NCBI GenBank assembly: GCA_015068765.1
Contig: SVJY01000001.1
Span: forward strand, 6,863 to 70,862
Reading direction: 5' to 3'
DNA length: 64,000 nt
DNA from: Oscillospiraceae bacterium
GTDB taxonomy: Bacteria; Bacillota; Clostridia; UMGS1883; UMGS1540
Part shown: piece after piece, positions 5,631-64,000 of the stretch
Layout of the letters: every line of letters begins with the position of its first letter
How positions within the stretch are numbered: position 1 is the first letter of the stretch
Program-made: the position numbers and the translations under genes
The notes under the pieces: generated by a model
The model's input: only the letters and a program-made list of their open reading frames with translations
The model's database searches: none
Told to the model about the DNA's origin: nothing

Positions 5631-5634
5631 AATC

Positions 5635-6093: not shown

Positions 6094-6116
6094 AGGCCCA
6101 TATGATATACAAGCGA

Positions 6117-6150
6117 GGGAGCGTGCCCATGGGACTCGCTCCCACTTTTA
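6117..6150 (+). terminator. Weak hairpin plus T-run between ftsL and the PBP gene (possible partial terminator or processing site)
   Basis: GGGAGCG (6117-6123) pairs with CGCTCCC (6137-6143). The loop contains the palindromic CCCATGGG. ACTTTTAC follows. Confidence 0.3.
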
Positions 6151-6163
6151 CTACATACAAGGA

Positions 6164-8362: not shown

Positions 8363-8385
8363 TTAGAAAATTGGAGGAGCGAAAC

Positions 8386-12087: not shown

Positions 12088-12112
12088 AAACAAAGAAAGG
12101 AGCACCCGGAAC

Positions 12113-13258
12113 GTGGAGAAAAAACAAAAAAGAAATGTTTTTGGGGGAATAGACATTCCATTTCTGACCATCATATTTGTTATGCTCGCTTTCGGGCTGA
12201 TCATGGTATTCAGTGCAAGTGCCCCTTCTGCTTTTTATAATGAGGGAGATAAGCTGTATTATATTAAAAGACAGCTTATTTGGACAGTGGTCGGTATGGG
12301 TGCTATGGGGGGCATGATCGTTATAGGGCATCGCTTTGTCAAACGGTATGCGTCGATTGTGTTTATTATCTCCCTGGTCCTATTAGGGCTCGTGCTGGCA
12401 ATCGGCAGTACCGGCGGCGGTGCACAGCGTTGGTTGGCATTCGGACCGATTCGCTTCCAGCCCTCCGAGCTTGCTAAATTTGCACTCGTTTTCTTCTTTG
12501 CCAAACGCATGGCAGAAAAACCGAAGAATCAGATTCGCCAGTTTACACACGGTCTCTTGCCTTATTTGTTTATTCTGGGTCTTATGGTGGGCATTATGAT
12601 TTTACAGGACCACCTAAGCGGTGCTGTTATTATTTTTATGACCGGCATCATCATGCTGGTGGCGGGCGGTGCAAGACTTTCGCATCTCGGTTTGATTATG
12701 CTGGCAGGCTTGGCGGTTTTGGTCCCGGCGGCGTTTCTCGAGGAATACCGGCTAAAGCGGCTCATGGCATTTCGGAACCCCTTTGCAGACCCTACCGATA
12801 CGGGATATCAGATTGTACAGGGCTTGTATGCCATTGCATCGGGGGGACTGTTCGGTCTGGGTCTTGGACAGAGCCGACAAAAGTTTCTGTATATCCCCGA
12901 AGCCCATAACGACTATATTTATGCCATTATCTGTGAAGAGCTGGGCTTTGTGGGTGCTGCTTTGGTGGCGGTGCTTTTTGTGTTGCTGATTACCAGAGGG
13001 GTATACATCGCTATGCACGCACCTGATACGTTTTCCTCTCTGACGGTGTTTGGTATCATCTCGATTATAGGCTTACAGTATCTCATCAACGTAGGTGTTG
13101 TAACCGGAACGATTCCCAATACCGGAATGCAGCTTCCCTTTTTCAGTGCAGGCGGGTCGTCTCTTATATTTATTATGGCGGCTATGGGCGTAGTGCTGAG
13201 TATATCACGGGAAATAAAGCGTAAGGGGCAATCTGTCCGGGAAGGAGGAAAAAAATGA
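12113..13258 (+). CDS. ftsW: SEDS-family peptidoglycan polymerase FtsW/SpoVE
   Basis: 381 aa, about 10 TM segments. FQPSELAK, PEAHNDYIYAII and GTIPNTGMQLPFFSAGGSS motifs. Position between mraY and murG. Confidence 0.92.
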   Translation: MEKKQKRNVFGGIDIPFLTIIFVMLAFGLIMVFSASAPSAFYNEGDKLYYIKRQLIWTVVGMGAMGGMIVIGHRFVKRYASIVFIISLVLLGLVLAIGSTGGGAQRWLAFGPIRFQPSELAKFALVFFFAKRMAEKPKNQIRQFTHGLLPYLFILGLMVGIMILQDHLSGAVIIFMTGIIMLVAGGARLSHLGLIMLAGLAVLVPAAFLEEYRLKRLMAFRNPFADPTDTGYQIVQGLYAIASGGLFGLGLGQSRQKFLYIPEAHNDYIYAIICEELGFVGAALVAVLFVLLITRGVYIAMHAPDTFSSLTVFGIISIIGLQYLINVGVVTGTIPNTGMQLPFFSAGGSSLIFIMAAMGVVLSISREIKRKGQSVREGGKK

Positions 13259-14331
13259 GAATTGTACTTTCCGGTGGCGGTACGGGCGGACATATTTATC
13301 CGGCCATTGCCATTGCCAACTATGTTAAGGAACAAAATCCGGACGCAGAGATTTTGTTTATCGGGAACGCAGGGGGCATGGAGTCAAAATTAGTGCCTCG
13401 GGCAGGGTATCCGATAAACTATATACAGGTGCAAGGGTTACGCCGACGGATCAGCATAGAAAATCTGAAAACAGCTGTGCGGCTTGTTACCTCCTATCAC
13501 AGTGCCAAAAAGATTTTACGGGAGTTTGCTCCGGATATTGTTATCGGTACAGGCGGCTATGTGTGCCTTCCGGTCGTCTTGGCGGCAACGGCACTGAAAA
13601 TCCGATCCCTCGTGCACGAGCAGAACGTATTTCCGGGGCTTACGGTGAGAATGTGTGCCGGCCGTGCTGATACGGCAATCAGCTTTCCGGAGACAGAAAA
13701 ATACTTTAAAAAAACACCGAAGCGACTGCTTCTCACCGGTAATCCCATAAGGCCGGAGCTACTTCGTCCGGCGACAGAGAAGAAGCCTGCCGGCGAACCG
13801 CTTGTGGTCATCAGCGGCGGAAGCCTCGGTGCACAGAAAATCAATGATACGCTCATTGCGCTTTTGAAAATGGGCGGACAGGATTATTATGGCATTATCG
13901 CCTCCACCGGAGAACGAAACTATGAAGCGGTGATGCAAAAAATCAAAGAAGAAAAAATACGGCTTTGCGAAAACAAAAAAATTCTGCCGTATATTCATGA
14001 TATGGATACGGTGCTGAAGCGTGCAGATTTGGCCGTTACCCGAGCCGGTGCCATTACTGTAAGCGAGCTGAGTGCAATGGGCAAGCCGGCAATTCTGATT
14101 CCAAGCCCCAACGTGACAAACGACCATCAGACCTATAATGCCCGTACCATGGAGAAAAACGGAGCGGCGGTGCTGCTACCGGAATCGGAGCTTTCCGCAG
14201 AGGTGCTGGCAGGGCAGATTAAAACCCTTCTCTCCAGCCAGACCCACTTGCGTAATATGGCGAGGGCGGCGAAAGACTGTGCTATTTTAGATGCCTGCCA
14301 GCGTATTTACACTTGGATTTGCGAGAAGTAA
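13255..14331 (+). CDS. murG: Undecaprenyldiphospho-muramoylpentapeptide beta-N-acetylglucosaminyltransferase MurG
   Basis: 358 aa. GGTGGHIYPAIA N-terminal motif and the C-terminal RAGAITVSEL nucleotide-sugar motif. ATGA overlap with ftsW. Confidence 0.95.
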   Translation: MRIVLSGGGTGGHIYPAIAIANYVKEQNPDAEILFIGNAGGMESKLVPRAGYPINYIQVQGLRRRISIENLKTAVRLVTSYHSAKKILREFAPDIVIGTGGYVCLPVVLAATALKIRSLVHEQNVFPGLTVRMCAGRADTAISFPETEKYFKKTPKRLLLTGNPIRPELLRPATEKKPAGEPLVVISGGSLGAQKINDTLIALLKMGGQDYYGIIASTGERNYEAVMQKIKEEKIRLCENKKILPYIHDMDTVLKRADLAVTRAGAITVSELSAMGKPAILIPSPNVTNDHQTYNARTMEKNGAAVLLPESELSAEVLAGQIKTLLSSQTHLRNMARAAKDCAILDACQRIYTWICEK

Positions 14332-50172: not shown

Positions 50173-51288
50173 TTATTGCATAGTATTTTCGGAGGACGAT
50201 AAGAGCTCCAGTGCTTTTTCCAGTTGCAGGTCCACACCTTCCGTATTGTTTTCTATAACGTGGTGCGGTTCGATACCGTTTCCGTCTATGATGTAGCCGC
50301 CGGAGGTGTAATAGTGGGCAACAGTAAGCTTTACGCCGCCCTCCTTTAATTTAAACAGATTTTGCACACTGCCTTTCCCGTAGGTCTTCTGTCCCACCAG
50401 CGTAGCACGGCCGTTATCCTTCAAAGCACCGGCAAGGACTTCGGAGGCTGAAGCGCTGTTCTCGTTTATGATAAGTACCAGGGGCAGGGAATTGAAGCTT
50501 TCGTCGCTTTCATACAGGGCTTCACGCTTACCGTCTTTATTTTCCGTATAGACGATACTGCAGCGCGGCAGGAGCATATCGGCGATTTCCGCCACCGTGC
50601 CCAGATATCCGCCCGGATTATCTCGGACATCGATAATGAGCCCCCGTGCGTTACTTTTTTCTGCCCGGTCAATCGCCGCCGCCATTTCGCCGGCGGTGGG
50701 GGAATCAAAGCTACGGATACGGATATAGGCAATATCCGCTTTTTTTTCGTACACAACCGTATCCAGATGAATGGTTGTTCGGGATACGGAGAGCGTCATG
50801 GTTTCCGTTCCGCGAAGCACGGTCAGCGTTAGAGGCGTGCTGTCATTTCGGGCACGCAGTATTAAAAGGGCTTCTGCGTACGTTTCTTCATTAATCTCCA
50901 GTTCATTTACGCCCAGCAGTATATCGTCGGGCATAATACCGGCCTCATCGGCGGGGGTATCGGGGAAAGTGGAGGAGACAACCAGCTTGCCGTCCTGTAT
51001 TTGGACTTCAATGCCGATGCCTACATAATTCGCGTCCATTTCTTCCATGAACATGGCATATTCTTCTTCGGTAAAATATACGGAATAGGGATCCCCAAGT
51101 GCTTCCACCATGCCGCGTATTGCACCCTGCTCCAGTTCCGTCTCCGTCACGTCACCGGCGAAGGTGTTTAAAAGCAATAGCTTTACGGAGGTGACGGGCG
51201 GTAGGGTGAAGATATACACGGCAAAGCAAATCAGCACCGTGGCAACCACACTAATCAGTGCAGTAAGTATAATCGGTTTTTTAGACAA
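50173..51288 (-). CDS. S41-family C-terminal processing peptidase (CtpA/Tsp-like) with PDZ domain
   Basis: 371 aa. N-terminal TM anchor, PDZ (GIEVQIQDGKLVV..TFPDTPADEAGI..DDILLGVN), catalytic context INENSASASEVLAGAL and TYGKGSVQ. Confidence 0.9.
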   Translation of the reverse strand: MSKKPIILTALISVVATVLICFAVYIFTLPPVTSVKLLLLNTFAGDVTETELEQGAIRGMVEALGDPYSVYFTEEEYAMFMEEMDANYVGIGIEVQIQDGKLVVSSTFPDTPADEAGIMPDDILLGVNELEINEETYAEALLILRARNDSTPLTLTVLRGTETMTLSVSRTTIHLDTVVYEKKADIAYIRIRSFDSPTAGEMAAAIDRAEKSNARGLIIDVRDNPGGYLGTVAEIADMLLPRCSIVYTENKDGKREALYESDESFNSLPLVLIINENSASASEVLAGALKDNGRATLVGQKTYGKGSVQNLFKLKEGGVKLTVAHYYTSGGYIIDGNGIEPHHVIENNTEGVDLQLEKALELLSSSENTMQ

Positions 51289-51337
51289 ACTGTTCTATCC
51301 TTTCCGATGACATCTTTATGGTTACTATATGCTGAAC

Positions 51338-52516
51338 TTACTCGAAATATCCCATCGGGTCAGTGTATTCACCGTTAATCAGCACCTCAAAGTGAAGATG
51401 CGGTCCGGTGGATACGCCGGTAGAACCAACCAGTGCAATCTGCTGTCCGCGGGATACAGACTGTCCGCTTTCTACAAGCAGAACACAGCAATGCCCGTAC
51501 AGGGTCTGTACACCGGCACCGTGGTCAATCACAACATAATTGCCGTAACCGCTGTTCCAGCCGGCACGGAGCACTGTGCCGCCCTCTGCCGCAACAATGG
51601 AAGCACCCTGCCCGGCACCGATATCAATACCTGTATGGGTTTTATTCCGTTTTTGAACGGGGTGATAGCGGGTCCCGAAGGGAGAGGTGATATAGGTGGT
51701 GGAGGGCGTTGGCCAGCAGAAGCGGCCGCCGCTGTCCGTGACCTGCGGCTGGCTGGGAGTAGGCGTCGAGGTCTGGGTTAATGCACGGATTTCCGCACGG
51801 AGGGCTTCCTCCGCCGCATCGGCGGCATCCAGCGTGGCACGGTAAGCTTCCTCGTCGGATTCCAGCTTGGAAATTACCGTGTCCAGTGCCGCACGGTTTG
51901 CGTCCAGCTCTGCTTTTTTCGATGCCTGAATATCCCTGTTTAGCTGTACCATGGCATTGGATTCTTCCACGGCAAGCTTTTTCGCTTCAATCTGTGCCTG
52001 GTTTTCCGCCATGCGGTCCAGCACGCTCCTGTCATACTCCACAATCTGGGAAACGGTTTCCACACGCTTTAAAAGGTCGGAGAAGCTTTCTGCACCGAAC
52101 AGAATACTCAGGAAGGAAACGTTACTGCGTTCATACATGACACGTACGCGGTCCTTAAAGGTATTCTCGTAGTTCGTTGCTGCTTCCACCGCTTTGTCCA
52201 GTTCCTCTGTCAGCAGCGCGATATTCTCTTCGTTTTCTGCAATCTGGAGTGAGAGTGTATAAAGCTCCGCCTCCAGCTTGGCAATATCCTGGTCCAACGT
52301 TTTCCGCGAGGCTTCCGCGTTGGAGATTTCGCCCTTCACTTCCGCAAGACCGGCTTCTGCCGCTTCACGGGAACGCTGTGCTTCCTTCAGCTGGGTTTCA
52401 AGCTGTGAGACGGTATCCGCCCGTGCCGTCAGTAAGGGGGCGGCGAAGGAGACAAGGAGCGAGAGCGTGAGTAGGGCGGCAAAGATAATGATCAGCTTTT
52501 TCGGCGTTTTTCTCAT
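51338..52516 (-). CDS. Coiled-coil M23 (LytM-type) peptidoglycan endopeptidase, EnvC/PcsB-like architecture
   Basis: 392 aa. Signal/TM, then about 230 aa of coiled coil, then an M23 domain with intact metal ligands HTGIDIGA (HxxxD) and GPHLHFEV (HxH). RBS GAGGAGG. Confidence 0.9.
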   Translation of the reverse strand: MRKTPKKLIIIFAALLTLSLLVSFAAPLLTARADTVSQLETQLKEAQRSREAAEAGLAEVKGEISNAEASRKTLDQDIAKLEAELYTLSLQIAENEENIALLTEELDKAVEAATNYENTFKDRVRVMYERSNVSFLSILFGAESFSDLLKRVETVSQIVEYDRSVLDRMAENQAQIEAKKLAVEESNAMVQLNRDIQASKKAELDANRAALDTVISKLESDEEAYRATLDAADAAEEALRAEIRALTQTSTPTPSQPQVTDSGGRFCWPTPSTTYITSPFGTRYHPVQKRNKTHTGIDIGAGQGASIVAAEGGTVLRAGWNSGYGNYVVIDHGAGVQTLYGHCCVLLVESGQSVSRGQQIALVGSTGVSTGPHLHFEVLINGEYTDPMGYFE

Positions 52517-52526
52517 AATAACCTCC

Positions 52527-53441
52527 TCAAACCTTTAGATGCCGACGAACGGCTATCAAACTGCCCAGTGCACCCATCAGTGCACCAAACAGGAGCAAAA
52601 TCAAAACAAGCGTACCGGAGACCGTGGAAAATGCACGGAGCGAAAAGGGGAACCATACAGAACCGGCAACGGCACGGGTGCAGGCACCGTAAAGTGCCAT
52701 ACACACAAGCTGAGAAATCAGACCACCTACAAGCCCCACCACAATTCCTTCAATGATAAACGGCCAACGGATAAACCAATCGGTAGCACCCACATATTTC
52801 ATAATGTGGATTTCCCGTTCCCGCGCAAATACCGCGAGCTTTATGGTGTTGGAAATAATGAAAACAGCAATCAATGCCAGAACAATCATCGCAACCACAA
52901 GCACAATCTTAATTACCTGCGTGGTGCGGAGAACGTTGTCGGTTATATCCTGTTGGTGACTGACGTCTGCAATACCGTCCACGGCACGGAGTGCCGCGGC
53001 TGTCTGGGCGGAGGTAGACAAATCTCGGACGGAAATCGTATAGGAAGCACGGAGAAAATCATCGTCCTCCCAGTTGTCAATGGAAATGCCACCCTCCATG
53101 AGCATGGCACGGGCACCTTCAAATGCCTGTGCTTTTGTTTCCAGCTCTGCGGCGGAAACATTTTCGATGCGACAAAGCGTGGCCTCCAGTGCCGCTGTTT
53201 CAGACTCCGAGAGGGCAGGGTCCACATAAGCCACAATCCGGCATTCCGCCTGTACTTGGTCGGCGATATAGCTTAGGTTCATGCTGAACAGGGTAAAAGT
53301 ACCCAGAAAGAGAAGACAGCCCGTAACGGTGACGAGACTGGCAAGCGTCATCAGAATATTGTGAAATATACTTTTAAAGGCTTCACTGCAAAAATAACGG
53401 AATTCTCTAAACGCCAACGGTATAGCCCCCTTCCTTCTCAT
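52527..53441 (-). CDS. ftsX: Cell division ABC transporter permease-like protein FtsX
   Basis: 4-TM FtsX topology with a large extracellular loop. Follows ftsE. The start is uncertain: ATG 53441 (no SD) or TTG 53417 (behind GAAGGAAGGGGG). The track start 53510 is unlikely. Confidence 0.88.
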   Translation of the reverse strand: MRRKGAIPLAFREFRYFCSEAFKSIFHNILMTLASLVTVTGCLLFLGTFTLFSMNLSYIADQVQAECRIVAYVDPALSESETAALEATLCRIENVSAAELETKAQAFEGARAMLMEGGISIDNWEDDDFLRASYTISVRDLSTSAQTAAALRAVDGIADVSHQQDITDNVLRTTQVIKIVLVVAMIVLALIAVFIISNTIKLAVFAREREIHIMKYVGATDWFIRWPFIIEGIVVGLVGGLISQLVCMALYGACTRAVAGSVWFPFSLRAFSTVSGTLVLILLLFGALMGALGSLIAVRRHLKV

Positions 53442-54096
53442 CGCTGACCAGATGCCCCATATCCAGCGTGATAACACGCTTATGCATCTCATTAACCAGC
53501 TTTTCTGCATGGGTTGCCATGAGGATTGTAGTACCCCGGTTATTGATATCCTCTAAAATGGCCATGATTTCAGCGGCCTTTTCCCGATCCAAATTGCCGG
53601 TAGGCTCGTCTGCGATCAGAATAGAGGGATTGTTGGCAAGTGCACGTGCCATGGAGACACGCTGCTGTTCACCGCCGGATAGCTGATTGGGGTATGCCTT
53701 GGACTTCCGGGAAAGTCCCACCATATTCAGAAGCTCCGGAATCCGCCGACGCATCTGCCTTGTGGAAGCACCGACAATACGCATGGCAAAGGCGACATTT
53801 TCATATACTGTACGGGACGGCAGAAGACGGAAATCCTGAAACACAACGCCGATTTCCCGACGCAGGAACGGGATTTCCTTTCTGGAAAGTGCACCGATAT
53901 TATGTCCGTTGACAATTACCTCTCCCTCCGTAGGCGTTTCTTCGCAAAGAAGCATACGGATGATAGAGGATTTACCGGCACCGCTGTGTCCCACAAGAAA
54001 TACAAACTCCCCTTTTTCCACATGGAAGCTGACATCTTCCAGAGCCAGTGCCTTATTATCTTCGTAGATTTTGGTAACGTGATTGAAGTGAATCAT
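53407..54096 (-). CDS. ftsE: Cell division ATP-binding protein FtsE
   Basis: 229 aa. Walker A GHSGAGKSS, signature LSGGEQQR, Walker B ILIADEPTGNLD. Confidence 0.95.
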   Translation of the reverse strand: MIHFNHVTKIYEDNKALALEDVSFHVEKGEFVFLVGHSGAGKSSIIRMLLCEETPTEGEVIVNGHNIGALSRKEIPFLRREIGVVFQDFRLLPSRTVYENVAFAMRIVGASTRQMRRRIPELLNMVGLSRKSKAYPNQLSGGEQQRVSMARALANNPSILIADEPTGNLDREKAAEIMAILEDINNRGTTILMATHAEKLVNEMHKRVITLDMGHLVSDEKEGGYTVGV

Positions 54097-54128
54097 AATT
54101 TTTCCTTTTGTGTTATTCAGTCTGTAAA

Positions 54129-55220
54129 TTACAGCTTCATGGGATTAGAAACGAGATACCGCTTTACCATCATGGCAATTTTAAACACGATGGCATGGTC
54201 AAATATGCGTAAATCAAGCCCTGTCAGCTTCTGCACTTTATCCAGGCGGTATACAAGGGTATTCCGATGCACATACAGCTGGCGTGAGGTTTCCGAAACA
54301 TTCAGGTCGTTTTCAAAGAATTTTTGGATCGTGAACAGCGTTTCCGAATCCAGAACATCAATGGATTCCTTTTTGAAGACCTCAGATAAGAACAGCTCGC
54401 AAAGGGTGGTAGGCAATTGGTATATGAGACGGCCGATTCCGAGATTTTCATAGTTGATAATCTTGTGCTCCGTATCGAATACCTTGCCAACCTCCAGTGC
54501 CACACGGGCATCCTTATAGGATTTTGCCAGGTCTTTGATTGTGGGGGCAATGGAGCCGATGCCTATCGTTATCTGCGTGTAGGCTTCTGCGGTCACGGTG
54601 TCCAAAATGGTTTTGGCAAGCTGGTCCAGCTCTGCATCGGTGGTACCCGGCTGAATGTCCTTCGCTAAAATGGTATTCCGTTCGTCCAGATTGAAAACAA
54701 AGTCCCGGTTCTTTTCAGGGAAGATGCTCTGCACTACCTCGGACAGGGTGTGTGCACTTGCACTGCCGTCTGCCATGCGAAGAAGCATAATGACACGGGG
54801 CGTATCGTAAGCAAGATGCAGTTCCTTTGCACTGACGAGGATATCGCCGGGAAGTACGTTATCCAGAATAATGTTGCGGATAAGGTTGGAACGGTCATAC
54901 CGGTCATTATGGAGCTGATTCATGGAGCTTATGGCAACAGAAATCATTTCTGCATATCGAACGGCAGCATCGTCCTCTCCTTCAACGAAGATCAGAAATT
55001 CTGCCGGATTATGTACAGAAGCACCAAAAAAGGTAAACCCAAGAAAATGGAACGGTTCTTCCATCTCTTCTGCCAGCCGTGCAAGCTCCGGCTCATGCTG
55101 TAACATTACCATGTCCTCAGGATATGAAAAAACAAAGTCGCCGTCCTCATAAAGACCGACCTTACGGCCTGCGGACACGCCCATCTGATAAAGTACACTT
55201 TGATAAAATTTATGTGCCAT
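54129..55220 (-). CDS. PucR/CdaR-family transcriptional regulator
   Basis: 363 aa from ATG 55220 (RBS AAAGGAG). C-terminal PucR HTH (ETSRQLYVHRNTLVYRLDKVQKLTGLDL). Only 32 nt and no terminator before ftsE. Confidence 0.8.
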   Translation of the reverse strand: MAHKFYQSVLYQMGVSAGRKVGLYEDGDFVFSYPEDMVMLQHEPELARLAEEMEEPFHFLGFTFFGASVHNPAEFLIFVEGEDDAAVRYAEMISVAISSMNQLHNDRYDRSNLIRNIILDNVLPGDILVSAKELHLAYDTPRVIMLLRMADGSASAHTLSEVVQSIFPEKNRDFVFNLDERNTILAKDIQPGTTDAELDQLAKTILDTVTAEAYTQITIGIGSIAPTIKDLAKSYKDARVALEVGKVFDTEHKIINYENLGIGRLIYQLPTTLCELFLSEVFKKESIDVLDSETLFTIQKFFENDLNVSETSRQLYVHRNTLVYRLDKVQKLTGLDLRIFDHAIVFKIAMMVKRYLVSNPMKL

Positions 55221-55257
55221 GGTTTTCTCCTTTTCTACAAAATATCTACTCAATTAT

Positions 55258-55420: not shown

Positions 55421-56602
55421 TTGCACGATACAAAATGTGTTGCCATGATACTTGCCGGCGGGCAGGGAAGCCGGCTTGGAGCACTTACAAGGCAGATTGC
55501 GAAACCGGCAGTGCCTTTTGGCGGCAAATACAGAATTATAGATTTTGTGCTGAGCAACTGCACCCATTCGGGAATTCATACCGTCGGTGTTTTGACCCAA
55601 TATCAACCGCTGGACCTCAACACTTACATCGGTAGCGGCCAGCCGTGGGATTTGGACCGCAACCGGGGCGGCGTGTACATTCTGCCGCCCTATCAGAAAA
55701 TGGAGGCAGGGGAGTGGTACAAAGGTACAGCCAATGCCATTTACCAGAACATAGGCTTTATTGAACGGTTTAACCCTCGGTATGTACTGGTATTATCCGG
55801 TGACCATATTTACAAAATGCATTACGGAAAAATGCTGGATATGCACAAAAGCACCGGCGCGGCGGCGACCATTGCGGTTATCCGTGTGCCGATTAATGAG
55901 GCCTCCCGGTTTGGCATTATGCAAACGGACGAGACGGGGCGAATTACGGAATTTCAGGAAAAACCCCAGAAGCCGAAAAATGATCTGGCCTCTATGGGCG
56001 TGTATGTGTTTGACTGGCGGATACTAAAAAAGTATCTGATTTTAGACGAAGGGAACCCGAATTCCGGAAACGATTTCGGGAAAAATGTAATTCCGCAAAT
56101 GCTGGCGGCAGGAGAAAGACTGCAGGCATATAACTTTGACGGCTACTGGAAGGACGTGGGGACGGCGAAAAGCTTGTGGGAGGCCAATATGGACCTGGTG
56201 CAGACACCGCCGCGGTTTGATTTATACGATCCGGATTGGACGATTTTCAGCCGCAGTACTGCCCAACCGCCCCATTTCGTAGCAGATAGCTCCCATATTT
56301 CCGACAGCATCGTCACGGAAGGGTGTCGGATATACGGCAGAGTGCATGAAAGTGTACTGTTTCGGGGGGTAGTTGTTTCCAGGGGAGCACGGGTATGCAG
56401 CAGTATTGTGTTCCCCGGTGCCTATATCGAGGCGGATGCCAGTGTGGAAAATGCAATTATTGGCAGTGGCGTCCGTGTGCGGCGAGGCACAGATATCCGA
56501 CCGGAGAAGCAGGGGGAAATTTGCGTGGTTGGCGATGAAACGGTAGTGGACGCATGTGTACGGAAAAGTACGGAGAGAAGTGCGGCAATCGGAGGGATAT
56601 AG
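55421..56602 (+). CDS. glgC: Glucose-1-phosphate adenylyltransferase
   Basis: 393 aa. [13 protein letters not shown]....[15 protein letters not shown], and a C-terminal left-handed beta-helix. TTG start. Confidence 0.95.
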
Positions 56603-57712
56603 ATGCAGGATACAATGGGGATTATTTTGACAGAGTCGGAGGACGTAACCTTACGTGAGCTTACCGAAATGCGGAGCACGGCGGCACTGCCCATTGCCGG
56701 AAGATACCGTCTGATTGATTTTGTCCTTTCGGGGCTTGTCAATTCCGGTATTATCAATGTCGGTGTTGCTACCAAGCACAAGTATCTGTCAATCATGGAT
56801 CATCTGGGGGCAGGCAGCTCCTGGGATTTACAGCGGGAACACTATGGCCTTTTTATACTGCCCCCTTATGCAAACTATGAAAAATTCGGAAACCTGGCAG
56901 GGGATTTGGACGTTCTGATGGGAATTATGCCCTATCTGCGGCGTAGCCGCCAGAAATATGTGATTCTGACGGAGGGCAACACGGTATGCAATATCACCTT
57001 TCAAGAGGCAATGCGGCAGCACAAGGAGACGGAAGCGGATATCACCGTCATTTACCGGGAGGAGACAGGCGAGCCGTCCCGTTTTCTCATGCTGGAAACG
57101 GAGGCGGATGGTCACATTTGCGATTTGGCGTTCCGTCCCCAGTACAGCAAAAGCCGCAAGGCGGCAATGGATATGTTCATCATGGAAAAGGAGCTTTTGA
57201 TTCGCATTATCGAGGGGGCCGCTGCACGGGGAGAACACAGCTTTGTGATGGGGGCACTGGTGCGGCGGCAGGAAAGTCTTCGTATGTATGGCTGGGAATT
57301 TAAAGGTTATGCCAGGAAGGTGGATTCCGTGGCATCGTATTTTGACTGCAATATGGATGTTTTACGGGAGGAGGTGCAGACAGCACTTTTCTGTAAAGAG
57401 GAGCCCATTTTCACGAAGGTGAAAAATCGAGTGCCTACCCGGTATGGAGACAGTGCGGCACTTTCCAGCTGTCTGGTGGCAGACGGATGCGTTTTGGAGG
57501 GACACGCGGAAAACTGTGTTTTCTTCCGCGGCGTGAAGCTGGGAAAGCATTCCCACCTTAAAAATTGCATCGTTATGGAAAAAAGTCACATCGATACAAA
57601 CTGTGTGGCGGAAAACGTAATTTTTGATAAGGAATGTCTGATGCGGGAAGGGCGGCGACTGACAGGACAGCCCAATTATCCGATTATTATCCGGAAGGGA
57701 GCAGTGATTTAA
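56603..57712 (+). CDS. glgD: Glucose-1-phosphate adenylyltransferase subunit GlgD
   Basis: 369 aa. GlgC paralogue with a degenerate N-terminal motif (GIILTES...LPIAGRYRLIDF), immediately after glgC as in Firmicutes glgCD pairs. Confidence 0.9.
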   Translation: MQDTMGIILTESEDVTLRELTEMRSTAALPIAGRYRLIDFVLSGLVNSGIINVGVATKHKYLSIMDHLGAGSSWDLQREHYGLFILPPYANYEKFGNLAGDLDVLMGIMPYLRRSRQKYVILTEGNTVCNITFQEAMRQHKETEADITVIYREETGEPSRFLMLETEADGHICDLAFRPQYSKSRKAAMDMFIMEKELLIRIIEGAAARGEHSFVMGALVRRQESLRMYGWEFKGYARKVDSVASYFDCNMDVLREEVQTALFCKEEPIFTKVKNRVPTRYGDSAALSSCLVADGCVLEGHAENCVFFRGVKLGKHSHLKNCIVMEKSHIDTNCVAENVIFDKECLMREGRRLTGQPNYPIIIRKGAVI

Positions 57713-58501
57713 ATGAAAAAATGGGCAGTGCCCATGGCGGCAGTTTTATGTTTGACGGGGTGCGGTGCCGGGGAGGCGGTGGTTCCGCCTACGGAGCCTG
57801 CGGTAGAAGTGGCGGCAAAAATAGAGGGCTGGGGTTTTCGGCCGATGCAGAATGCCCGGCCGGAGTTTACGAAGGAGCAGATTGCGGCCATGGATACATA
57901 CGACTGTATTTATATGGGGAAAGAGGACGAAGGTATTTATTTGACCTTTGATGAGGGGTATGAAACCGGCTACACGGCCTCCATTTTGGATACGCTGAAG
58001 GAAAAGGGCGTTACAGCGGCATTTTTTATCACAGGGGATTACCTCAAACGGAACGAAGACTTAGTACGCCGCATGGTGGAGGAAGGGCATATTGTGGGTA
58101 ACCACACCGAGAATCATCCTTCCTTGCCCACGGTGAAGGAGGACAGCAAGGTGCAGGAGGAGCTGACGGTGTTAGGCGATACGTTTGCCGATACGTTCGG
58201 GGTACCCATGCGGTATGCAAGACCGCCCAAAGGGGAATACGACGAACGCACACTTCGTATTACAAAGGAAACGGGCTATACCAATGTGTTTTGGAGCTTT
58301 GCCTATGAGGATTGGCTACAGGATACGGTGAAGGGGAAGGAATATGCTTATAATAAAGTAATGGCAGGCCTGCATGGCGGCGCGGTTATACTTCTTCATG
58401 CCGTGTCCCCGGATAATGCCCAGGCACTGGGAGATATTATTGACGGTGCAAGAGCGCAGGGGTATGTTTTCCGTAGCTTAGATGCGTATGTCGCCGAATA
58501 A
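57713..58501 (+). CDS. pdaA: Polysaccharide deacetylase lipoprotein, PdaA-like (delta-lactam-biosynthetic de-N-acetylase type)
   Basis: 262 aa. Lipobox LCLTGC. NodB motifs YLTFDEGYE, FFITG, GHIVGNHTENHP, LLHA. The pdaA assignment is by similarity of motifs and length to B. subtilis PdaA, recalled from memory. Confidence 0.7.
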   Translation: MKKWAVPMAAVLCLTGCGAGEAVVPPTEPAVEVAAKIEGWGFRPMQNARPEFTKEQIAAMDTYDCIYMGKEDEGIYLTFDEGYETGYTASILDTLKEKGVTAAFFITGDYLKRNEDLVRRMVEEGHIVGNHTENHPSLPTVKEDSKVQEELTVLGDTFADTFGVPMRYARPPKGEYDERTLRITKETGYTNVFWSFAYEDWLQDTVKGKEYAYNKVMAGLHGGAVILLHAVSPDNAQALGDIIDGARAQGYVFRSLDAYVAE

Positions 58502-58514
58502 GTTGTCAGGCAAT

Positions 58515-58549
58515 AAAAAAGAAATCCGTACGACGCGGATTTCTTTTTT
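58515..58549. terminator. Bidirectional rho-independent terminator (pdaA / alr)
   Basis: AAAAAAGAAATCCG-tacgacg-CGGATTTCTTTTTT. The alr stop codon lies in the T/A arm. Confidence 0.85.
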
Positions 58550-59711
58550 ATATCGGTTCTACCGGCACACCGTCTTTATAATAGATCCGATGAACGCGTG
58601 GCATGAAGTTGCATACAACCTCATAATTAAAGCTATGACACAGGCTGCCAAGTGTTTCCGCCGAGATGCATGCCCCCTCGTTTTCGCCGAGAACAATGGC
58701 ATGGTCACCCACAGAGACGTCGGGGATATCGGTGATATCCACCATAATCTGGTCCATACAGACCTTGCCCACAACCGACGCCTTTTTTCCGTTTATCAGC
58801 ACATAACCGGCATCGGTGAGACAGCGATTGTAGCCATCTGCATACCCGATGCTGAGGGTGGCAATTTTTCGTTCCCGGGGGGCGGTGTATATGTGCCCGT
58901 ATCCGATTTTGAAGCCACCGGGTACTGTTTTAATATGCACAACGTGGCAAACCACTTCCATAGCAGGGCGAAGCACAATTCGATCGGTATCCATTTCGTC
59001 CGAGGGATACAGACCATATAGAGCAATTCCCAGTCGGCACATATCGTACTGCTTTGTAAAATCCATCGTGCCGGCACTGTTGCAGATGTGCTTTAAGGGA
59101 ATGTGCACATTCCGTTCCTCTAAAAGAGCAATAAAGGAATCGAACAAGCTTGTCTGGCACAGGGCATCTGCTTTATCCGCACAGTCTGCACAGGCGTAGT
59201 GGCTGAAAAGCCCTTCCAGCATGATGCCGGGTAGGCAGGAGATTGCCTGTACCGTGTCCGCACTCTCCGGCGAAGGCGTAAAGCCGATCCTTCCCATGCC
59301 CGTATCTACGGCCACATGGATTTTCGCCTTTTTCCCCTTTTTCAGTGCGGCATCGCTTAGTGCCTTTGCTTCTTCCGGGTTATAGAGGGTGGCAGTAATA
59401 TCTTGGCTTAAAAGGGTATCGTAGTGGAACGGACTCGTATAGGAGAGCACCAGAATGGGCTTTTGGATACCACCCTCCCGTAAAATGACCGCTTCGTCAA
59501 GCCCTGCCACGGCAAAGTAGTCCACATTTTCCTCCAGATGCCGTGCCACCTGTACACTGCCGTGGCCGTATCCGTCCGCTTTGACAACTGCCATGGTTTT
59601 TACGCCTCGGGAAAGGCAGGACTGTAATTCCCGGAGATTGTGTGCAATGGCATCGAGATCAATTTTCGCAAAGGCGCGGTAATAGAATGGATAGGTGTGA
59701 GATGAACGCAT
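58548..59711 (-). CDS. alr: Alanine racemase
   Basis: 387 aa. PLP-lysine motif AVVKADGYGHG. C-terminal beta-domain with VCMDQIMVD. Confidence 0.93.
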   Translation of the reverse strand: MRSSHTYPFYYRAFAKIDLDAIAHNLRELQSCLSRGVKTMAVVKADGYGHGSVQVARHLEENVDYFAVAGLDEAVILREGGIQKPILVLSYTSPFHYDTLLSQDITATLYNPEEAKALSDAALKKGKKAKIHVAVDTGMGRIGFTPSPESADTVQAISCLPGIMLEGLFSHYACADCADKADALCQTSLFDSFIALLEERNVHIPLKHICNSAGTMDFTKQYDMCRLGIALYGLYPSDEMDTDRIVLRPAMEVVCHVVHIKTVPGGFKIGYGHIYTAPRERKIATLSIGYADGYNRCLTDAGYVLINGKKASVVGKVCMDQIMVDITDIPDVSVGDHAIVLGENEGACISAETLGSLCHSFNYEVVCNFMPRVHRIYYKDGVPVEPI

Positions 59712-59715
59712 AGCA

Positions 59716-60495
59716 TTATGCCCTTTCCGTTATGATTTGTGCAATAGGTTTTATAGCGATTCCCTCTTTTTCGAGGGCACTACGAATTTTCTTTACAAAC
59801 AGCAGTGCCTTCTCGCTGTCTCCGTGTACACACACAGAGTCGGGACAAATTTCAATTTCACGACCGGAAACGGTTGTCACGGTACGGTTTTTAATCATAC
59901 GAATAACGCGGCTTACCGCCAGGTCCTCATCATGAATCATGGCACCGGGCTTGCTTCTTGCCACCAGCGTGCCGTCATCCTCGTACGCTCTGTCTGCAAA
60001 AACCTCTGCCGCATGGGGCAGACCGATTTCCCTTGCTGCTCGAAGCATTTCACTGTTTGCGAGCCCCAGTAAAATAAGGCTCGGATTATAGGTATAAATC
60101 CCCTCACAGATTGCTTTGGCGAGTGCTGCATCCTTTGCCGCCATATTGTACAGTGCACCGTGAGGCTTTACGTGCTGGAGCGAAATACCCTCACTTTTGC
60201 AGAAGGCATCCAGTGCACCTACCTGATAGATCACCAGATGCTTTGCATCCTCGGGGGAAAGCTGCATATTTCGCCGTCCGAAGCCCTGTAAATCGGCAAA
60301 GCCGGGGTGTGCACCGATTGCCGTGCCGCTTTCCTTGCAGTACGCGGCGGTTTTTGCCATAATCGTAGGGTCGCCTGCATGAAAGCCGCAGGCAACGTTT
60401 GCGGAGGAAACGAGGGGAAGAATATCCTTGTCCCTGCCGATGGTATAAGCACCGAAGCTTTCGCCAAGGTCACTGTTGAGGTCTATTGCATACAT
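59716..60495 (-). CDS. pxpA: 5-oxoprolinase subunit A (LamB/YcsF family)
   Basis: 259 aa from ATG 60495. IDLNSDLGESFG, ACGFHAGDP, HVKPHGALYN. The track ORF is extended spuriously to 60618. Confidence 0.9.
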   Translation of the reverse strand: MYAIDLNSDLGESFGAYTIGRDKDILPLVSSANVACGFHAGDPTIMAKTAAYCKESGTAIGAHPGFADLQGFGRRNMQLSPEDAKHLVIYQVGALDAFCKSEGISLQHVKPHGALYNMAAKDAALAKAICEGIYTYNPSLILLGLANSEMLRAAREIGLPHAAEVFADRAYEDDGTLVARSKPGAMIHDEDLAVSRVIRMIKNRTVTTVSGREIEICPDSVCVHGDSEKALLFVKKIRSALEKEGIAIKPIAQIITERA

Positions 60496-60500
60496 GGTTT

Positions 60501-61286
60501 TCAATCCTTTAAGAGCGTATTTTTTACATCTGTAATGAACATATGTCCCGGTGCGTGGGAAATGGCGATAGGGGGTCTGGCGGACATAACCACCGACTGC
60601 GGTGTTACGCCACAGCACCAGAACACGGGGATTTCTCCTTCCTTTACGGTAACGGCTTCGCCGAAATCCGGTTTGGAAAGATCCTGGATGCCGATTTTTG
60701 CCGGGTCGCCAATATGAATGGGCGCACCGTGAACACGGGGCATAGAGGCAGTGATGCTGGTGGCACGAATTGCCTGCTCTGCCGTCATGGGACGCATGCT
60801 CACAACGGTTTTGCCGTGGAACATCCCTGCCGGCTCACACTCGATATTGGTAAGATACATGGGAACGTTCCGCCCTTCCTCGATATGGCGTACCGGCACA
60901 TCTGCCGCCAGAAGCTCCCCTTCAAAGGAGAAGGAACAGCCAATCAGAAAGTAGACATAATCGTCCCGCCAAAGGTGGGAAATGTCTGTAAATTCACCCG
61001 AGAGCTCGCCGTTTTCCCAAAGACGGTACCTGGGGATATCCGTGGCGATATCACCGCCGGTTGCCATTTTCTTCACAAGACGACTTCCCATATCTCCAAC
61101 CTCTAAAATGGGGCAAGGCTTAGGATTTCGCTGGGTAAAAAGGAGAAAGTCGTAAGCTTCTTCCCGGGGAAGAATTAAAAGATTGCCTTGGGCATATCCG
61201 TCACACATACCGGAGGTTTGCCCTGTAATTTTCCCTTCTCGGATCAGCTGTCTGACCTGAGAAGGAGCCATTTTTGCGTACTCCAT
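60501..61286 (-). CDS. DUF1445 / UPF0317 putative hydro-lyase (D-glutamate cyclase C-terminal-domain family)
   Basis: 261 aa. VRQLIREGKITGQTSGMCDGYAQGNLLILP..AYDFLLFTQRNPKPCPILE is the characteristic N-terminal signature of this family (recalled, not searched). Confidence 0.8.
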   Translation of the reverse strand: MEYAKMAPSQVRQLIREGKITGQTSGMCDGYAQGNLLILPREEAYDFLLFTQRNPKPCPILEVGDMGSRLVKKMATGGDIATDIPRYRLWENGELSGEFTDISHLWRDDYVYFLIGCSFSFEGELLAADVPVRHIEEGRNVPMYLTNIECEPAGMFHGKTVVSMRPMTAEQAIRATSITASMPRVHGAPIHIGDPAKIGIQDLSKPDFGEAVTVKEGEIPVFWCCGVTPQSVVMSARPPIAISHAPGHMFITDVKNTLLKD

Positions 61287-61299
61287 GGTTCTATCCTTT

Positions 61300-62250
61300 C
61301 TATTTGGAAAAAAGTGTCAGGTACTGAAGTCCCCGGCGTTTTCTTTCCGTTTGCTTTTTTAGGGAGACGGCTTCTTTTTCGCTGACGGCAGTGAAGAGAA
61401 TCCGGGTGCCGGGGCGTGCCTGTGCAATTTTTGGCAGGTCGGCAGAAATGACGGTAGCAATTTTGGCATAGCCACCTGTGGTTTGCCGGTCCGCCATCAT
61501 AATAATGGGTGTGCCCGAAGCAGGAATCTGAACAGAGCCTGTGGCAATCCCGTCGGAAAGAATATCCACCCCGTGTATATTTTCAATTTTCGCACCGGCA
61601 AGACGTACGCCCATACGGTCAGATTGTTCTGTTACTGTATATACTTCGCTAAGGAAGGTATGGATTCCTTCTTTTGTGAAAAAATCTTCCTGCGGGCCGA
61701 GGAGGACACGGACGCCGATACAGTCGGGATAGTCGTTCTCCGCCTGGGCTACCCGTTTGCCGATAGCGTCGGCCGTAATACCGGCACGGAGAGGGATTTC
61801 GTCGCCTGCCTGCAGCTTCCGTCCCTGAAAGCCGCCGAGGCCGCATTTGAGATTTGTGGACATACTGCCCATCACAAGGGGCAAATCAAAGCCACCGGCG
61901 ACGGCAAGATACGTCCGCATTCCGGATTTTGCCATTTGCAGGGAAAGTACATCACCGGGCTGTACGCCTACCGCTGTGTACATTTCTACAGGCGTATTGT
62001 TCATTTTGGGTGCCATATCTGCCCCGGTCAGTGCAATTACACTGTGACAGGAAAAGGAAACAGTCATACCCATCATCGTCATTTCAATTACGCCGTCATC
62101 GGGGATGTTTCCGACCAGAATATTCGCAAGCTGCATGGAATGGGTGTCCATCGCACCACCGGGCGAAAAGCCGGTCCGCATATAGCCGAAGCGACCCATA
62201 TCCTGTACGGTGGACAGCGGTCCGGCAGAAAGAACAGTCATTTTGTACAT
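61300..62250 (-). CDS. pxpC: 5-oxoprolinase subunit C (KipA / allophanate hydrolase subunit 2 family)
   Basis: 316 aa. GPLSTVQDMGRFGY...G....GAMD, cyclophilin-like fold family. Follows pxpB with a 13-nt overlap. Confidence 0.88.
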   Translation of the reverse strand: MYKMTVLSAGPLSTVQDMGRFGYMRTGFSPGGAMDTHSMQLANILVGNIPDDGVIEMTMMGMTVSFSCHSVIALTGADMAPKMNNTPVEMYTAVGVQPGDVLSLQMAKSGMRTYLAVAGGFDLPLVMGSMSTNLKCGLGGFQGRKLQAGDEIPLRAGITADAIGKRVAQAENDYPDCIGVRVLLGPQEDFFTKEGIHTFLSEVYTVTEQSDRMGVRLAGAKIENIHGVDILSDGIATGSVQIPASGTPIIMMADRQTTGGYAKIATVISADLPKIAQARPGTRILFTAVSEKEAVSLKKQTERKRRGLQYLTLFSK

Positions 62251-62963
62251 TCCGGTTCCTCCCTTACTTCAATTTCACTTGCCGACAGCCGGCATTTTTC
62301 AAATTCCGATGGGGTAATAGGGAAAAAACGGATGTAATCACCGGCACGGTATAAAATCGGCGTTTCTCTTGCGGGGTCATAGACCTTCACAGGCGTCTGT
62401 CCGATCAACCGCCAGCCGCCGGGGGAGGCAAGGGGATAAATGCCGGTCTGTTTACCGCCGATCCCCACGGCACCCTCCGGAATAACCGTACGTGGTGTCT
62501 CCAGCCGGGCGGCTTCAATCCGGGGATCCATGCCGCCAAGGTAGGGGAAACCGGGGAGAAAGCCCAGCATATAAATCAGATAGTCCGTGGAAGAATGTAT
62601 GCGAATCACCTCTGCCGGGAGAAGTCCCGTCAGCTTGGAGACATCCTCTAAATCAGGGGCATATGCACCTTCATAGCAAACCGGAATAAGGAAGACCCGC
62701 CGTGTGCCGGCAGAGCCTTCCCTGTAGGTCTCTATGAGCCGGAGAAGCTTTTTCTCCAGCTTTGAACGGGAAATACGCAGCGGATCAAAATACACAGTCA
62801 TACTGCAAAAGGTGGGCACTACCTCCTGTATACCGCGTATACGCTCCTTTTCAATCTGTGTAGCCAGAAAACGGATTTTCCGGTTAGCCTCTTCGCTGAT
62901 TTCCTTTGCGAATTCCACTGTTACCGCACTGTCCCCTAAGGGGAGAAATCTGATTTGTTCCAT
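62238..62963 (-). CDS. pxpB: 5-oxoprolinase subunit B (KipI / allophanate hydrolase subunit 1 family)
   Basis: 241 aa. FLPLGDSAVTVEF, IPVCY....PDL, FLPGFPYLGG, PGGW.LIG.TP. Confidence 0.88.
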   Translation of the reverse strand: MEQIRFLPLGDSAVTVEFAKEISEEANRKIRFLATQIEKERIRGIQEVVPTFCSMTVYFDPLRISRSKLEKKLLRLIETYREGSAGTRRVFLIPVCYEGAYAPDLEDVSKLTGLLPAEVIRIHSSTDYLIYMLGFLPGFPYLGGMDPRIEAARLETPRTVIPEGAVGIGGKQTGIYPLASPGGWRLIGQTPVKVYDPARETPILYRAGDYIRFFPITPSEFEKCRLSASEIEVREEPECTK

Positions 62964-62976
62964 ACTTGCTCCTTAA

Positions 62977-64000
62977 TCAGCCGAAATAATGAAGCTCCTC
63001 AACCTTTTCAAACCAGGTTTTACAGGTTTCGCGAAGAGAAAGTGCACTTTTGACCATTTCTCGCATCAGCGTGACAATGGGGAGATTGATTTTTAGGTCA
63101 AAGCCATCGATGGCAGGTACGAGCCAGCCGTACATATCAATCATACCACTGTTGCTGGCTGTCATGATTGCGTCCTTTTCAAGCTTTTCCGAATGCATGA
63201 TGTCCATATTCCCCAAAAGGTAAGCCAACGCCGCAATCATAGCGTAGCAGCCCCAGTCGGATACAGTGGCGGTAATCAGATTATCTGCCGCCGTTTTGGC
63301 GGCAAGACCGCTTTTACAGTCGCACCGACAGGCACCTTTTCTTGCATAGGGAATATATTTTTCCAAGGTGTCACGAATGGCACCCATGCCGATTTCATTG
63401 CCAAGGTCACCGATGGCGATGTTCAAAACGCCCATTTTCTGCAGCTTCTCAAATAGGACATCCTGTTTTGCCTCCAAAGCCGTCACATCGAGACCGATGG
63501 CGTTATGGTAAACGCCGATTTCGTTCGCACCCGGACACTCAATGCTGATAACCGCAGAGGGGGGCATATTGGCAATAATTTCATCGGCCTGTGCCGCGGC
63601 CTTGTCTGTGTCCTTTGTATAAACGACAACGCCCATGGAAACCGGAATTTCCCTAAGGTCCTGAATATCCTCAAAGAGGTGAAGTCCAACAACGGGTGCC
63701 ATGTTTTTCACGGCCTCGTAGTTTTCCTGGGGGCAAATTAAGATGGGCTTTGCATTGAAGGCCTTTACAAGGGCACGGCAAAGAAGCATAGAGCTGATGA
63801 TACCGTCTGTTTCCGCCTTTTTGAAGGGGCGGAGCACAAAGCCCGTCATGACATAAACAAAGTCGCCTTCCTTTACGGTGTCAACCAATCTCTGCGCGGC
63901 GTTCATACAGGTGGGTCCGCCGGTATATTCTCTCGAAGCCTTATAGAGAATTTTGCAAACGCCGTAGCCTCTGGGGTCCAGGTTTGCCAAATCGTCCAAG
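62977..64000 (-). CDS. DUF4392-like protein (D-glutamate cyclase N-terminal-domain family), possibly 5'-truncated by the window edge
   Basis: At least 340 aa. Motifs TGF......ETDG, ECPG, IAIGDLGNEIGMG. The track start is a TTG at 63999, one base from the window end, so the true start may lie beyond it. Family call is from memory. Confidence 0.65.
   Translation of the reverse strand, partial: LDDLANLDPRGYGVCKILYKASREYTGGPTCMNAAQRLVDTVKEGDFVYVMTGFVLRPFKKAETDGIISSMLLCRALVKAFNAKPILICPQENYEAVKNMAPVVGLHLFEDIQDLREIPVSMGVVVYTKDTDKAAAQADEIIANMPPSAVISIECPGANEIGVYHNAIGLDVTALEAKQDVLFEKLQKMGVLNIAIGDLGNEIGMGAIRDTLEKYIPYARKGACRCDCKSGLAAKTAADNLITATVSDWGCYAMIAALAYLLGNMDIMHSEKLEKDAIMTASNSGMIDMYGWLVPAIDGFDLKINLPIVTLMREMVKSALSLRETCKTWFEKVEELHYFG

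Follow-up and report, generated by a model that had tools for sequence, protein, structure and literature searches.

A conserved operon of mainly gut bacteria unites both domain families of animal D-glutamate cyclase with 5-oxoprolinase genes and a probable D-amino-acid transaminase

Introduction

The operon described here brings together protein families of two known enzymes, the prokaryotic 5-oxoprolinase and the animal D-glutamate cyclase. Most of it lies at positions 58548-64000 of a 64,000-nucleotide stretch of DNA from an Oscillospiraceae bacterium (contig SVJY01000001.1, positions 6,863 to 70,862; assembly GCA_015068765.1), the whole of which we call the window. D-Glutamate is part of every peptidoglycan stem peptide and so is plentiful in the gut; D-glutamate and the forms of 5-oxoproline (pyroglutamate) are abundant where bacterial cell walls break down. 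We know of few bacterial routes for the breakdown of D-glutamate and of none for that of 5-oxo-D-proline.

The prokaryotic 5-oxoprolinase is PxpABC, reportedly described by Niehaus and colleagues in 2017 (YcsF/KipI/KipA in B. subtilis; YbgL/YbgJ/YbgK in E. coli). DUF1445 is a very widespread and highly conserved family with two crystal structures, for which, to our knowledge, no bacterial function has been established; in the operon it stands between a probable D-amino-acid transaminase and an oxoprolinase, and DUF4392, to which it is fused in animals, is encoded there too. The mouse protein 9030617O03Rik (DGLUCY), in which a DUF1445 domain precedes a DUF4392 domain, converts D-glutamate to 5-oxo-D-proline; it showed neither racemase nor oxidase activity on glutamate, and without it D-glutamate accumulates in the heart (PMC5339696). 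In TON_0340, a DUF4392 protein from an archaeon, two Mn2+ ions are bound in a small cavity by six invariant acidic residues. The protein shows only weak phosphatase activity; its authors already remarked on the vertebrate fusion with a DUF1445 protein (PMC5132392).

Results

A seven-gene operon that runs past the window edge

Six tightly packed open reading frames (ORFs), all on the minus strand, fill 58548-63999 (Table 1). In operon order, from the DUF4392 gene to alr, they are spaced by 13, -13, 13, 5 and 4 nucleotides (nt), with a 13-nt overlap of pxpB and pxpC and the start of alr 4 nt past the end of pxpA. A purine-rich, Shine-Dalgarno-like stretch precedes each of the five genes whose start falls inside the window. 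The start of pxpA is the ATG at 60495 rather than the GTG of a mechanically called 300-aa ORF, and the gene call on a matching metagenome contig (below) gives the same start.

A simple terminator scan produced three weak minus-strand matches inside the operon, each within coding sequence. The scan missed the 16-bp hairpin at the end of alr, probably because its A and T runs pair and lengthen the stem. This hairpin is a strong terminator and serves both the operon and a convergent polysaccharide deacetylase gene. An earlier reading of the same DNA (the sequence-only reading) had placed these six genes as we find them, with a single terminator after alr and none internally, and both points hold.

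A metagenome contig of the Joint Genome Institute (JGI), L001, matches window positions 58548-64000 with 100% identity across all 5453 bases and therefore extends the window. On it the DUF4392 gene spans 7246-8310 and encodes 354 residues, 14 codons of which fall past position 64000; the family given to this gene before was right, and the length of 340 residues was not. A seventh gene, dat, lies upstream. At 67 nt before dat is a near-consensus promoter (TTGACT-17-TGnTATAAT, 11/12 matches), beyond which the genes are divergent. Given gaps of at most 26 nt, Shine-Dalgarno-like stretches, one promoter and one terminator, the unit is a single operon of the form promoter, dat, DUF4392, pxpB, pxpC, DUF1445, pxpA, alr and terminator, with the downstream six-sevenths in the window. 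An Rfam scan of seven loci found no riboswitch or T-box in the operon leader; one T-box was seen about 7.6 kb upstream of dat at another locus (L012). The same genome is present in JGI sample 3300031555 as two contigs (22 kb and 72 kb), whose ends would fit a join at about 22 kb of the window, and the window comes from a more contiguous assembly of the same strain.

The seventh gene encodes a fold-type IV aminotransferase, and several comparisons indicate that it is a D-amino-acid transaminase. Among NCBIfam models the protein scores best with TIGR01121 (D-amino-acid transaminase), at 239.3 bits and thus under the cut-off of 277.45, while branched-chain transaminase models score far lower (113-142 bits). 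The protein shares 40% identity with the Bacillus sp. YM-1 enzyme (PDB 1DAA), with Y31, R98, H100, K145 and E177 all aligned. In a search of PDB sequences the top seven matches, which are all those below E 1e-40, are D-amino-acid or D-alanine aminotransferases. The sequence-only reading had proposed looking for such an enzyme in the rest of the genome; the first gene of the operon itself encodes one.

Table 1. Coordinates of the operon genes, its terminator and related DUF1445 operons (window positions unless a contig or locus is named)
Feature	Location	Strand	Evidence or remark
dat (probable D-amino-acid transaminase), seventh gene	L001 6380-7219	same as operon	26 nt upstream of DUF4392
DUF4392 (PF14336 GLUCM-like_C), cut by the window edge	62977-64000 (ORF 62977-63999)	-	PF14336 E 6e-87
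pxpB (5-oxoprolinase subunit B, KipI-like)	62238-62963	-	PF02682 E 3e-75; TIGR00370 219.6 bits (cut-off 145.6)
pxpC (5-oxoprolinase subunit C, KipA-like)	61300-62250	-	PF02626 E 4e-97; TIGR00724 above cut-off
DUF1445 ('putative hydro-lyase', YcsI/PxpI family)	60501-61286	-	PF07286 D-Glu_cyclase E 5e-70; NF003969 417 bits (cut-off 324)
pxpA (5-oxoprolinase subunit A, LamB/YcsF lactamase-type), 259 aa	59716-60495	-	PF03746 E 5e-105; NF003814 378 bits (cut-off 226)
alr (alanine racemase), last operon gene here	58548-59711	-	PF01168 and PF00842; TIGR00492 365.4 bits (cut-off 168)
Bidirectional intrinsic terminator (A-run, 16-bp hairpin, T-run)	58513-58551	both	read from sequence; RNA fold -17.5 kcal/mol
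Nramp/biotin-carboxylase operon, Pseudomonas	L084 4989-11160		
Nramp/biotin-carboxylase operon, Rhizobium	L086 4933-11202		
Nramp/biotin-carboxylase operon, actinobacterium	L087 4844-11170		

The gene set is conserved across species

We scanned one genome per bacterial or archaeal species with a 43-sequence DUF4392 alignment as query, kept the best 80 loci and mapped the seven operon proteins onto them by tblastn. Conservation was counted over the 60 loci with a DUF4392 that shares at least 45% identity with the window protein, taking the loci that have enough flank as denominators. The five core genes (DUF4392, pxpB, pxpC, DUF1445, pxpA) were all present in 43 of 45 loci, and in 42 of the 45 they stood in the order DUF4392-pxpB-pxpC-DUF1445-pxpA, so that the gene order is kept in relatives. 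The sole rearranged copy with all genes kept is that of C. tyrobutyricum (dat-DUF4392-DUF1445-pxpA-alr-pxpB-pxpC). Carriers are mainly gut Oscillospirales and Lachnospiraceae; the others are Clostridium tyrobutyricum, Mobilisporobacter, Lacrimispora, [Clostridium] aerotolerans and one Victivallis genome. Strains available in culture are C. tyrobutyricum ATCC 25755, Lacrimispora sp. HJ-01, Mobilisporobacter senegalensis DSM 26537 and [Clostridium] aerotolerans DSM 5434. The set is kept although DUF4392 identity drops to 46%.

Since alr, pxpABC and dat each have a well-known role of their own, housekeeping genes might simply have come to lie side by side with no common function. The conservation data already contradict this very improbable explanation: the five-gene order recurs in other species at protein identities of 41-84%, which rules out a chance neighbourhood, Dat is adjacent in most of them, and within the operon pxpB and pxpC overlap and the other gaps are all small.

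The commonest addition to the core is Dat, directly upstream in 47 of 58 loci. Alanine racemase follows pxpA directly in 13 of 41 and is an optional, lineage-specific member. The sequence-only reading had stressed co-transcription with alr as a coupling to D-amino-acid supply; alr does belong to the window operon, but it does not define the cluster, and the link to D-glutamate through Dat is the stronger one. At an Acutalibacteraceae locus (L047 10001-12174), DUF4392 (51% identity) is followed directly by alr, with no pxp, DUF1445 or dat gene.

At about 15 Lachnospiraceae-type loci the operon has a closely spaced upstream extension in its own orientation, which consists of a Liv-type amino-acid ATP-binding cassette importer (a Peripla_BP_6 binding protein, e.g. 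L022 3763-4962, two permeases and two ATPases) followed by a PF13189 protein. This cytidylate-kinase-like protein stands between the importer and dat in about 10 Lachnospiraceae-type versions (L015, L021, L022, L027, L032 and L058, around 8300-9137; e.g. L022 8477-9121). At one locus (L020) a class I aminotransferase and a D-isomer-specific 2-hydroxyacid dehydrogenase occupy the place of Dat.

The remaining 20 loci, with a distant DUF4392 (29-36% identity), are without the cluster. In two Veillonellaceae genomes among them DUF1445 directly follows DUF4392 and nothing else of the set is present, which fits a split enzyme. Comparative genomics thus supports the view that the two DUF proteins act as a pair, as they are fused in animals and adjacent without pxp genes in these two genomes. 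In the three lists of homologues, cut at the top 150, 120 and 120, no fused DUF1445-DUF4392 protein appeared. A split cyclase working with PxpABC had been suggested by the sequence-only reading. Its genomic side is borne out by the presence of both domains, the conserved order and the adjacency without pxp genes; the activity itself is putative and drawn from sequence.

A possible role in the assimilation of D-glutamate and 5-oxoproline

Both halves of the only known D-glutamate cyclase strictly co-occur with a D-amino-acid transaminase, which makes D-glutamate most likely the shared metabolite. Three independent links lead to it: the activity of DGLUCY, the position of Dat upstream of the core and that of alr after pxpA. 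The structure of the operon, the families of its proteins and the conservation of the set are observations; the substrates, the direction of flux and any physical complex are inferred. We tentatively propose, giving it somewhat less than an even chance, that with this operon the cell can use D-glutamate and 5-oxoproline of either configuration, or rid itself of them.

PxpABC would convert 5-oxo-L-proline to L-glutamate at the expense of ATP. DUF1445 and DUF4392, the latter supplying a two-manganese site, would form a two-protein version of the animal cyclase and interconvert 5-oxo-D-proline and D-glutamate. Opening of a lactam ring without ATP is unfavourable; Dat, encoded next to DUF4392, could pull this reaction forward by converting D-glutamate and pyruvate to 2-oxoglutarate and D-alanine. 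Where Alr is present, it would turn D-alanine into L-alanine. The importers found in many species favour uptake and assimilation, and we counted the locus with a class I aminotransferase and a D-2-hydroxyacid dehydrogenase in place of Dat for the same direction.

Several points weigh against this proposal. A cyclase and an oxoprolinase in one operon would make a futile cycle if they used the same enantiomer, and the preference of PxpABC for the L form is assumed in the scheme. The operon of the window organism has no importer. Dat and alr also constitute the classic route for making D-glutamate, and the flux could in principle be reversed. DUF1445 accompanies PxpA/B/C without DUF4392 or Dat in many bacteria, so PxpA, and not DUF4392, may be its primary partner. 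That the genes are interleaved speaks for one complex more than for two separate enzymes. For the bacterial members, function is deduced from family membership and gene context.

The interleaved order and the tight pairing of DUF1445 with PxpA elsewhere leave room for a single five-protein complex, which as a variant of the scheme would open the D-lactam with ATP. We consider it rather unlikely, but conceivable, that the five core proteins are one machine, either an ATP-dependent 5-oxo-D-prolinase or an ATP-driven, one-way inverter of D-glutamate to L-glutamate through the lactam, with Dat as exit or entry. If true, bacterial DUF1445 and DUF4392 would gain their first function, and gut anaerobes would have a novel means of living on D-glutamate from cell walls.

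The operon might instead serve the supply and homeostasis of D-glutamate for the cell wall, a role we regard as unlikely. In Bacillus, Dat combined with Alr is an established route to D-glutamate, and both genes are present in the window operon. Alr would make D-alanine and Dat would make D-glutamate from D-alanine and 2-oxoglutarate, while the split cyclase would vent excess as 5-oxo-D-proline and PxpABC would repair spontaneously formed 5-oxoproline. The lack of an importer in the window operon suits such a role, as does the fact that cyclisation is the direction demonstrated for the mouse enzyme (PMC5339696). On the other hand, alr is missing from the cluster in 28 of 41 species, an importer in the same operon in about 15 species fits uptake better than synthesis, and five conserved genes are a lot for a valve on a side reaction. 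Assimilation is the role we continue to favour, if tentatively. The operon offers a concrete and cheap hypothesis for the cultured carriers and a clear path towards a first bacterial function for two widespread families; the outcome would also clarify the roles of the two domains of the mammalian enzyme.

The oxoprolinase subunits look ordinary

All three subunit families (PF03746, PF02682 and PF02626) are matched over their full length at E <=1e-75 within the one operon, and the proteins share 47, 40 and 37% identity with annotated E. coli PxpA, PxpB and PxpC. PxpB scores above its equivalog cut-off (TIGR00370). PxpA is above the subfamily model NF003814 only and below the NCBIfam equivalogs; PxpC, with 268.6 bits, is below the cut-off of 500 of the PxpC equivalog NF045499 and above that of the broader TIGR00724. 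A special PxpA/B/C subfamily was considered and rejected: the window set is equally distant from E. coli PxpABC and from the proteobacterial sets linked to DUF1445. PxpABC looks ordinary, with nothing to mark it as a special paralogue.

These scores bear on whether the true substrates could be some other lactam and D-amino acid, with the Pxp-like and DUF proteins opening a different ring and Dat deaminating the product. D-Amino-acid transaminases accept many D-amino acids, and breadth of this kind would suit such a pair. The sub-cut-off scores of PxpC, PxpA and Dat (239 bits against 277 for TIGR01121) also leave room for it, as does a P. putida PxpABC paralogue that is needed for the use of butyrolactam and not of 5-oxoproline (bioRxiv 10.1101/2021.12.09.472016). 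We nevertheless judge it quite unlikely: the window subunits stand no farther from the annotated E. coli subunits than from any other set compared, and D-glutamate is the substrate of the sole DUF1445/DUF4392 pair member whose activity is known (PMC5339696).

The DUF4392 protein appears catalytically intact

The family assignment made earlier for the DUF4392 protein is confirmed (Table 1). In the 43-sequence alignment the metal-site motifs ETDG, E-PG and GDxGNExG and residue D312 are invariant columns; E77, D79, E168, D212, E216 and D312 are all conserved without exception and line up with the TON_0340 motifs. With every acidic residue of the metal site invariant, DUF4392 appears to be catalytically intact. 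A CxCxC motif (C238, C240, C242; window 63240-63290) is nearly invariant in the bacterial DUF4392 proteins of about 350 residues, where it may provide a further site for a metal or for redox chemistry. When PDB sequences were searched with profiles for remote relatives of DUF4392 or DUF1445, only entries already known came up, and no structure of DGLUCY was among them.

Distant DUF4392 genes (29-36% identity) have other neighbours. In four unrelated lineages, an Asgard archaeon and metagenome-assembled genomes of a Clostridia, a Rhizobiaceae and an Anaerolineales member, each adjoins a two-cysteine gene of the Amdase/Asp-Glu-racemase family (L066 1239-1958; L069 10749-11459; L074 10915-11649; L076 5041-5751). 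Others adjoin 2,4-diaminopentanoate-dehydrogenase-like and pyridoxal-phosphate (PALP) genes. Several proteins of amino-acid metabolism seem to serve as alternative partners of DUF4392.

The DUF1445 protein shows no racemase fold

The assignment to DUF1445 likewise stands. The protein matches PDB entries 2PIF and 3DB9 at E 6e-92, is 53% identical to Pseudomonas PSPTO_5379 over the pairwise alignment, and is 49-55% identical to proteobacterial homologues in a multiple alignment. It has two invariant cysteines, in GC117SF and C225GVTPQ. A first structure prediction from 19 close homologues was unusable (predicted local distance difference test, pLDDT, 35). With proteobacterial homologues added to give a 43-sequence alignment, the AlphaFold2 model reached pLDDT 87 and a template-modelling (TM) score of 0.9 to 2PIF. 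A fold search with this model returned its own family (2PIF, 3DB9) and, weakly, the NrpR-like MJ0159 (E 1.6e-4, TM 0.4), and no racemase or hydrolase fold. The DUF1445 profile likewise showed no homology to the Amdase/Asp-Glu-racemase-type neighbours of distant DUF4392 genes (hhalign probability 0.1%).

These results bear on an ATP-driven inversion of D-glutamate to L-glutamate, in which DUF4392 would cyclise D-glutamate to 5-oxo-D-proline, DUF1445 or another subunit would racemise the lactam and PxpABC would irreversibly open 5-oxo-L-proline. Such a scheme would give every core protein a non-redundant role and account for the presence of DUF1445 alongside PxpABC in many bacteria; the two invariant cysteines of DUF1445 and the two-cysteine racemase-type genes beside distant DUF4392 genes could be read in the same way. 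We find it distinctly improbable: the fold search and the profile comparison both fail to connect DUF1445 with racemases, Dat would be superfluous, and mouse DGLUCY, with both domains, yields 5-oxo-D-proline and showed no racemase activity on glutamate (PMC5339696). Nothing that we found supports the racemase-independent route between L- and D-glutamate that the sequence-only reading had offered as a possibility.

DUF1445 is found with pxp genes elsewhere, as ycsI/pxpI in the kip locus of B. subtilis and in proteobacterial and actinobacterial operons, so that this adjacency in itself is not new. In Pseudomonas sp. GOM7, Rhizobium sp. WL3 and Lysinibacter cavernae a divergent GntR gene is followed by genes for Nramp, LamB, DUF1445, a PxpB-PxpC fusion and a fusion of biotin carboxylase with biotin carboxyl carrier protein (Table 1), and in two of the three genomes the LamB and DUF1445 genes overlap by 4 nt. 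These operons hint that the ATP dependence of some Pxp-type lactam hydrolases may act through biotin carboxylation, as in urea carboxylase; mycobacterial PxpB/C homologues bind a biotin-dependent carboxylase (PMC13012033).

Neighbouring genes in the window

Convergent onto the operon terminator are a glgC/glgD pair (two NTP_transferase genes) and the polysaccharide deacetylase gene (55421-58501). Adjoining the glg genes, ftsE/ftsX, an M23 peptidase (PcsB-like), a CtpB-like S41 protease and a PucR-type regulator (50173-55253) place cell-wall remodelling functions close to the D-amino-acid operon. About 45 kb from the operon lies a complete division and cell-wall (dcw) cluster (4267-14331) with mraZ, rsmH, a small gene without family match at the usual place of ftsL, a PASTA-domain penicillin-binding protein gene, murE, murF, mraY, ftsW and murG. 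No murI was seen anywhere in the 64-kb window.

Comparison with described systems

Like the 5-oxoprolinase loci of E. coli and B. subtilis, the window operon co-encodes all three subunit families. The E. coli genes have no DUF4392, DUF1445 or dat partners, whereas here the pxp genes are interleaved with both DUF genes and have dat in front. The B. subtilis locus ycsF-ycsG-ycsI-kipI-kipA-kipR and the proteobacterial and actinobacterial operons resemble it in setting DUF1445 beside PxpA, with PxpB/C homologues. They differ in having a manganese-type Nramp transporter and in lacking DUF4392, Dat and Alr; neither Nramp nor a KipR-type regulator is encoded in or beside the window operon. Biotin carboxylase, encoded in all three operons that we looked up (Pseudomonas, Rhizobium and an actinobacterium), is, like Nramp, absent from the Clostridial cluster.

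Dat resembles the Bacillus enzyme (1DAA) in being a fold-type IV transaminase with all key residues, and alr is a bona fide alanine racemase gene. We know of no case in which the Bacillus dat or alr genes are co-encoded with a cyclase or an oxoprolinase.

TON_0340 of Thermococcus onnurineus (4DWZ, 5GL2-4) is homologous to the window DUF4392 protein over the C-terminal 170 residues (E 1e-20) and has the same acidic metal ligands. It is about 85 residues shorter and lacks the CxCxC insertion of the bacterial proteins of about 350 residues, and the weak phosphatase is its only reported activity (PMC5132392).

The animal cyclase (DGLUCY/C14orf159, EC 4.2.1.48) is, as the sequence-only reading had it, a fusion of DUF1445 and DUF4392 (PMC5339696; PMC5132392). 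The window encodes the same two families, with the metal-binding residues of DUF4392 conserved. The animal protein is a single polypeptide, whereas in the window the two families are encoded 1.7 kb apart, by separate genes that flank two pxp genes, and the window proteins have no mitochondrial signal and no coiled coil. In the bacterial operon an ATP-dependent oxoprolinase and a transaminase are encoded as well. Our literature search found no paper describing a conserved combination of DUF4392 and Dat, with or without Alr or the importer, with pxp genes. The sequence-only reading knew of no characterised pathway that combines the two DUF genes with pxpABC and alr, which is apt for the cluster, but the linkage of DUF1445 to pxp genes exists elsewhere. 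Every gene of the operon belongs to a known family; what appears to be new is the conserved combination with DUF4392 and Dat.

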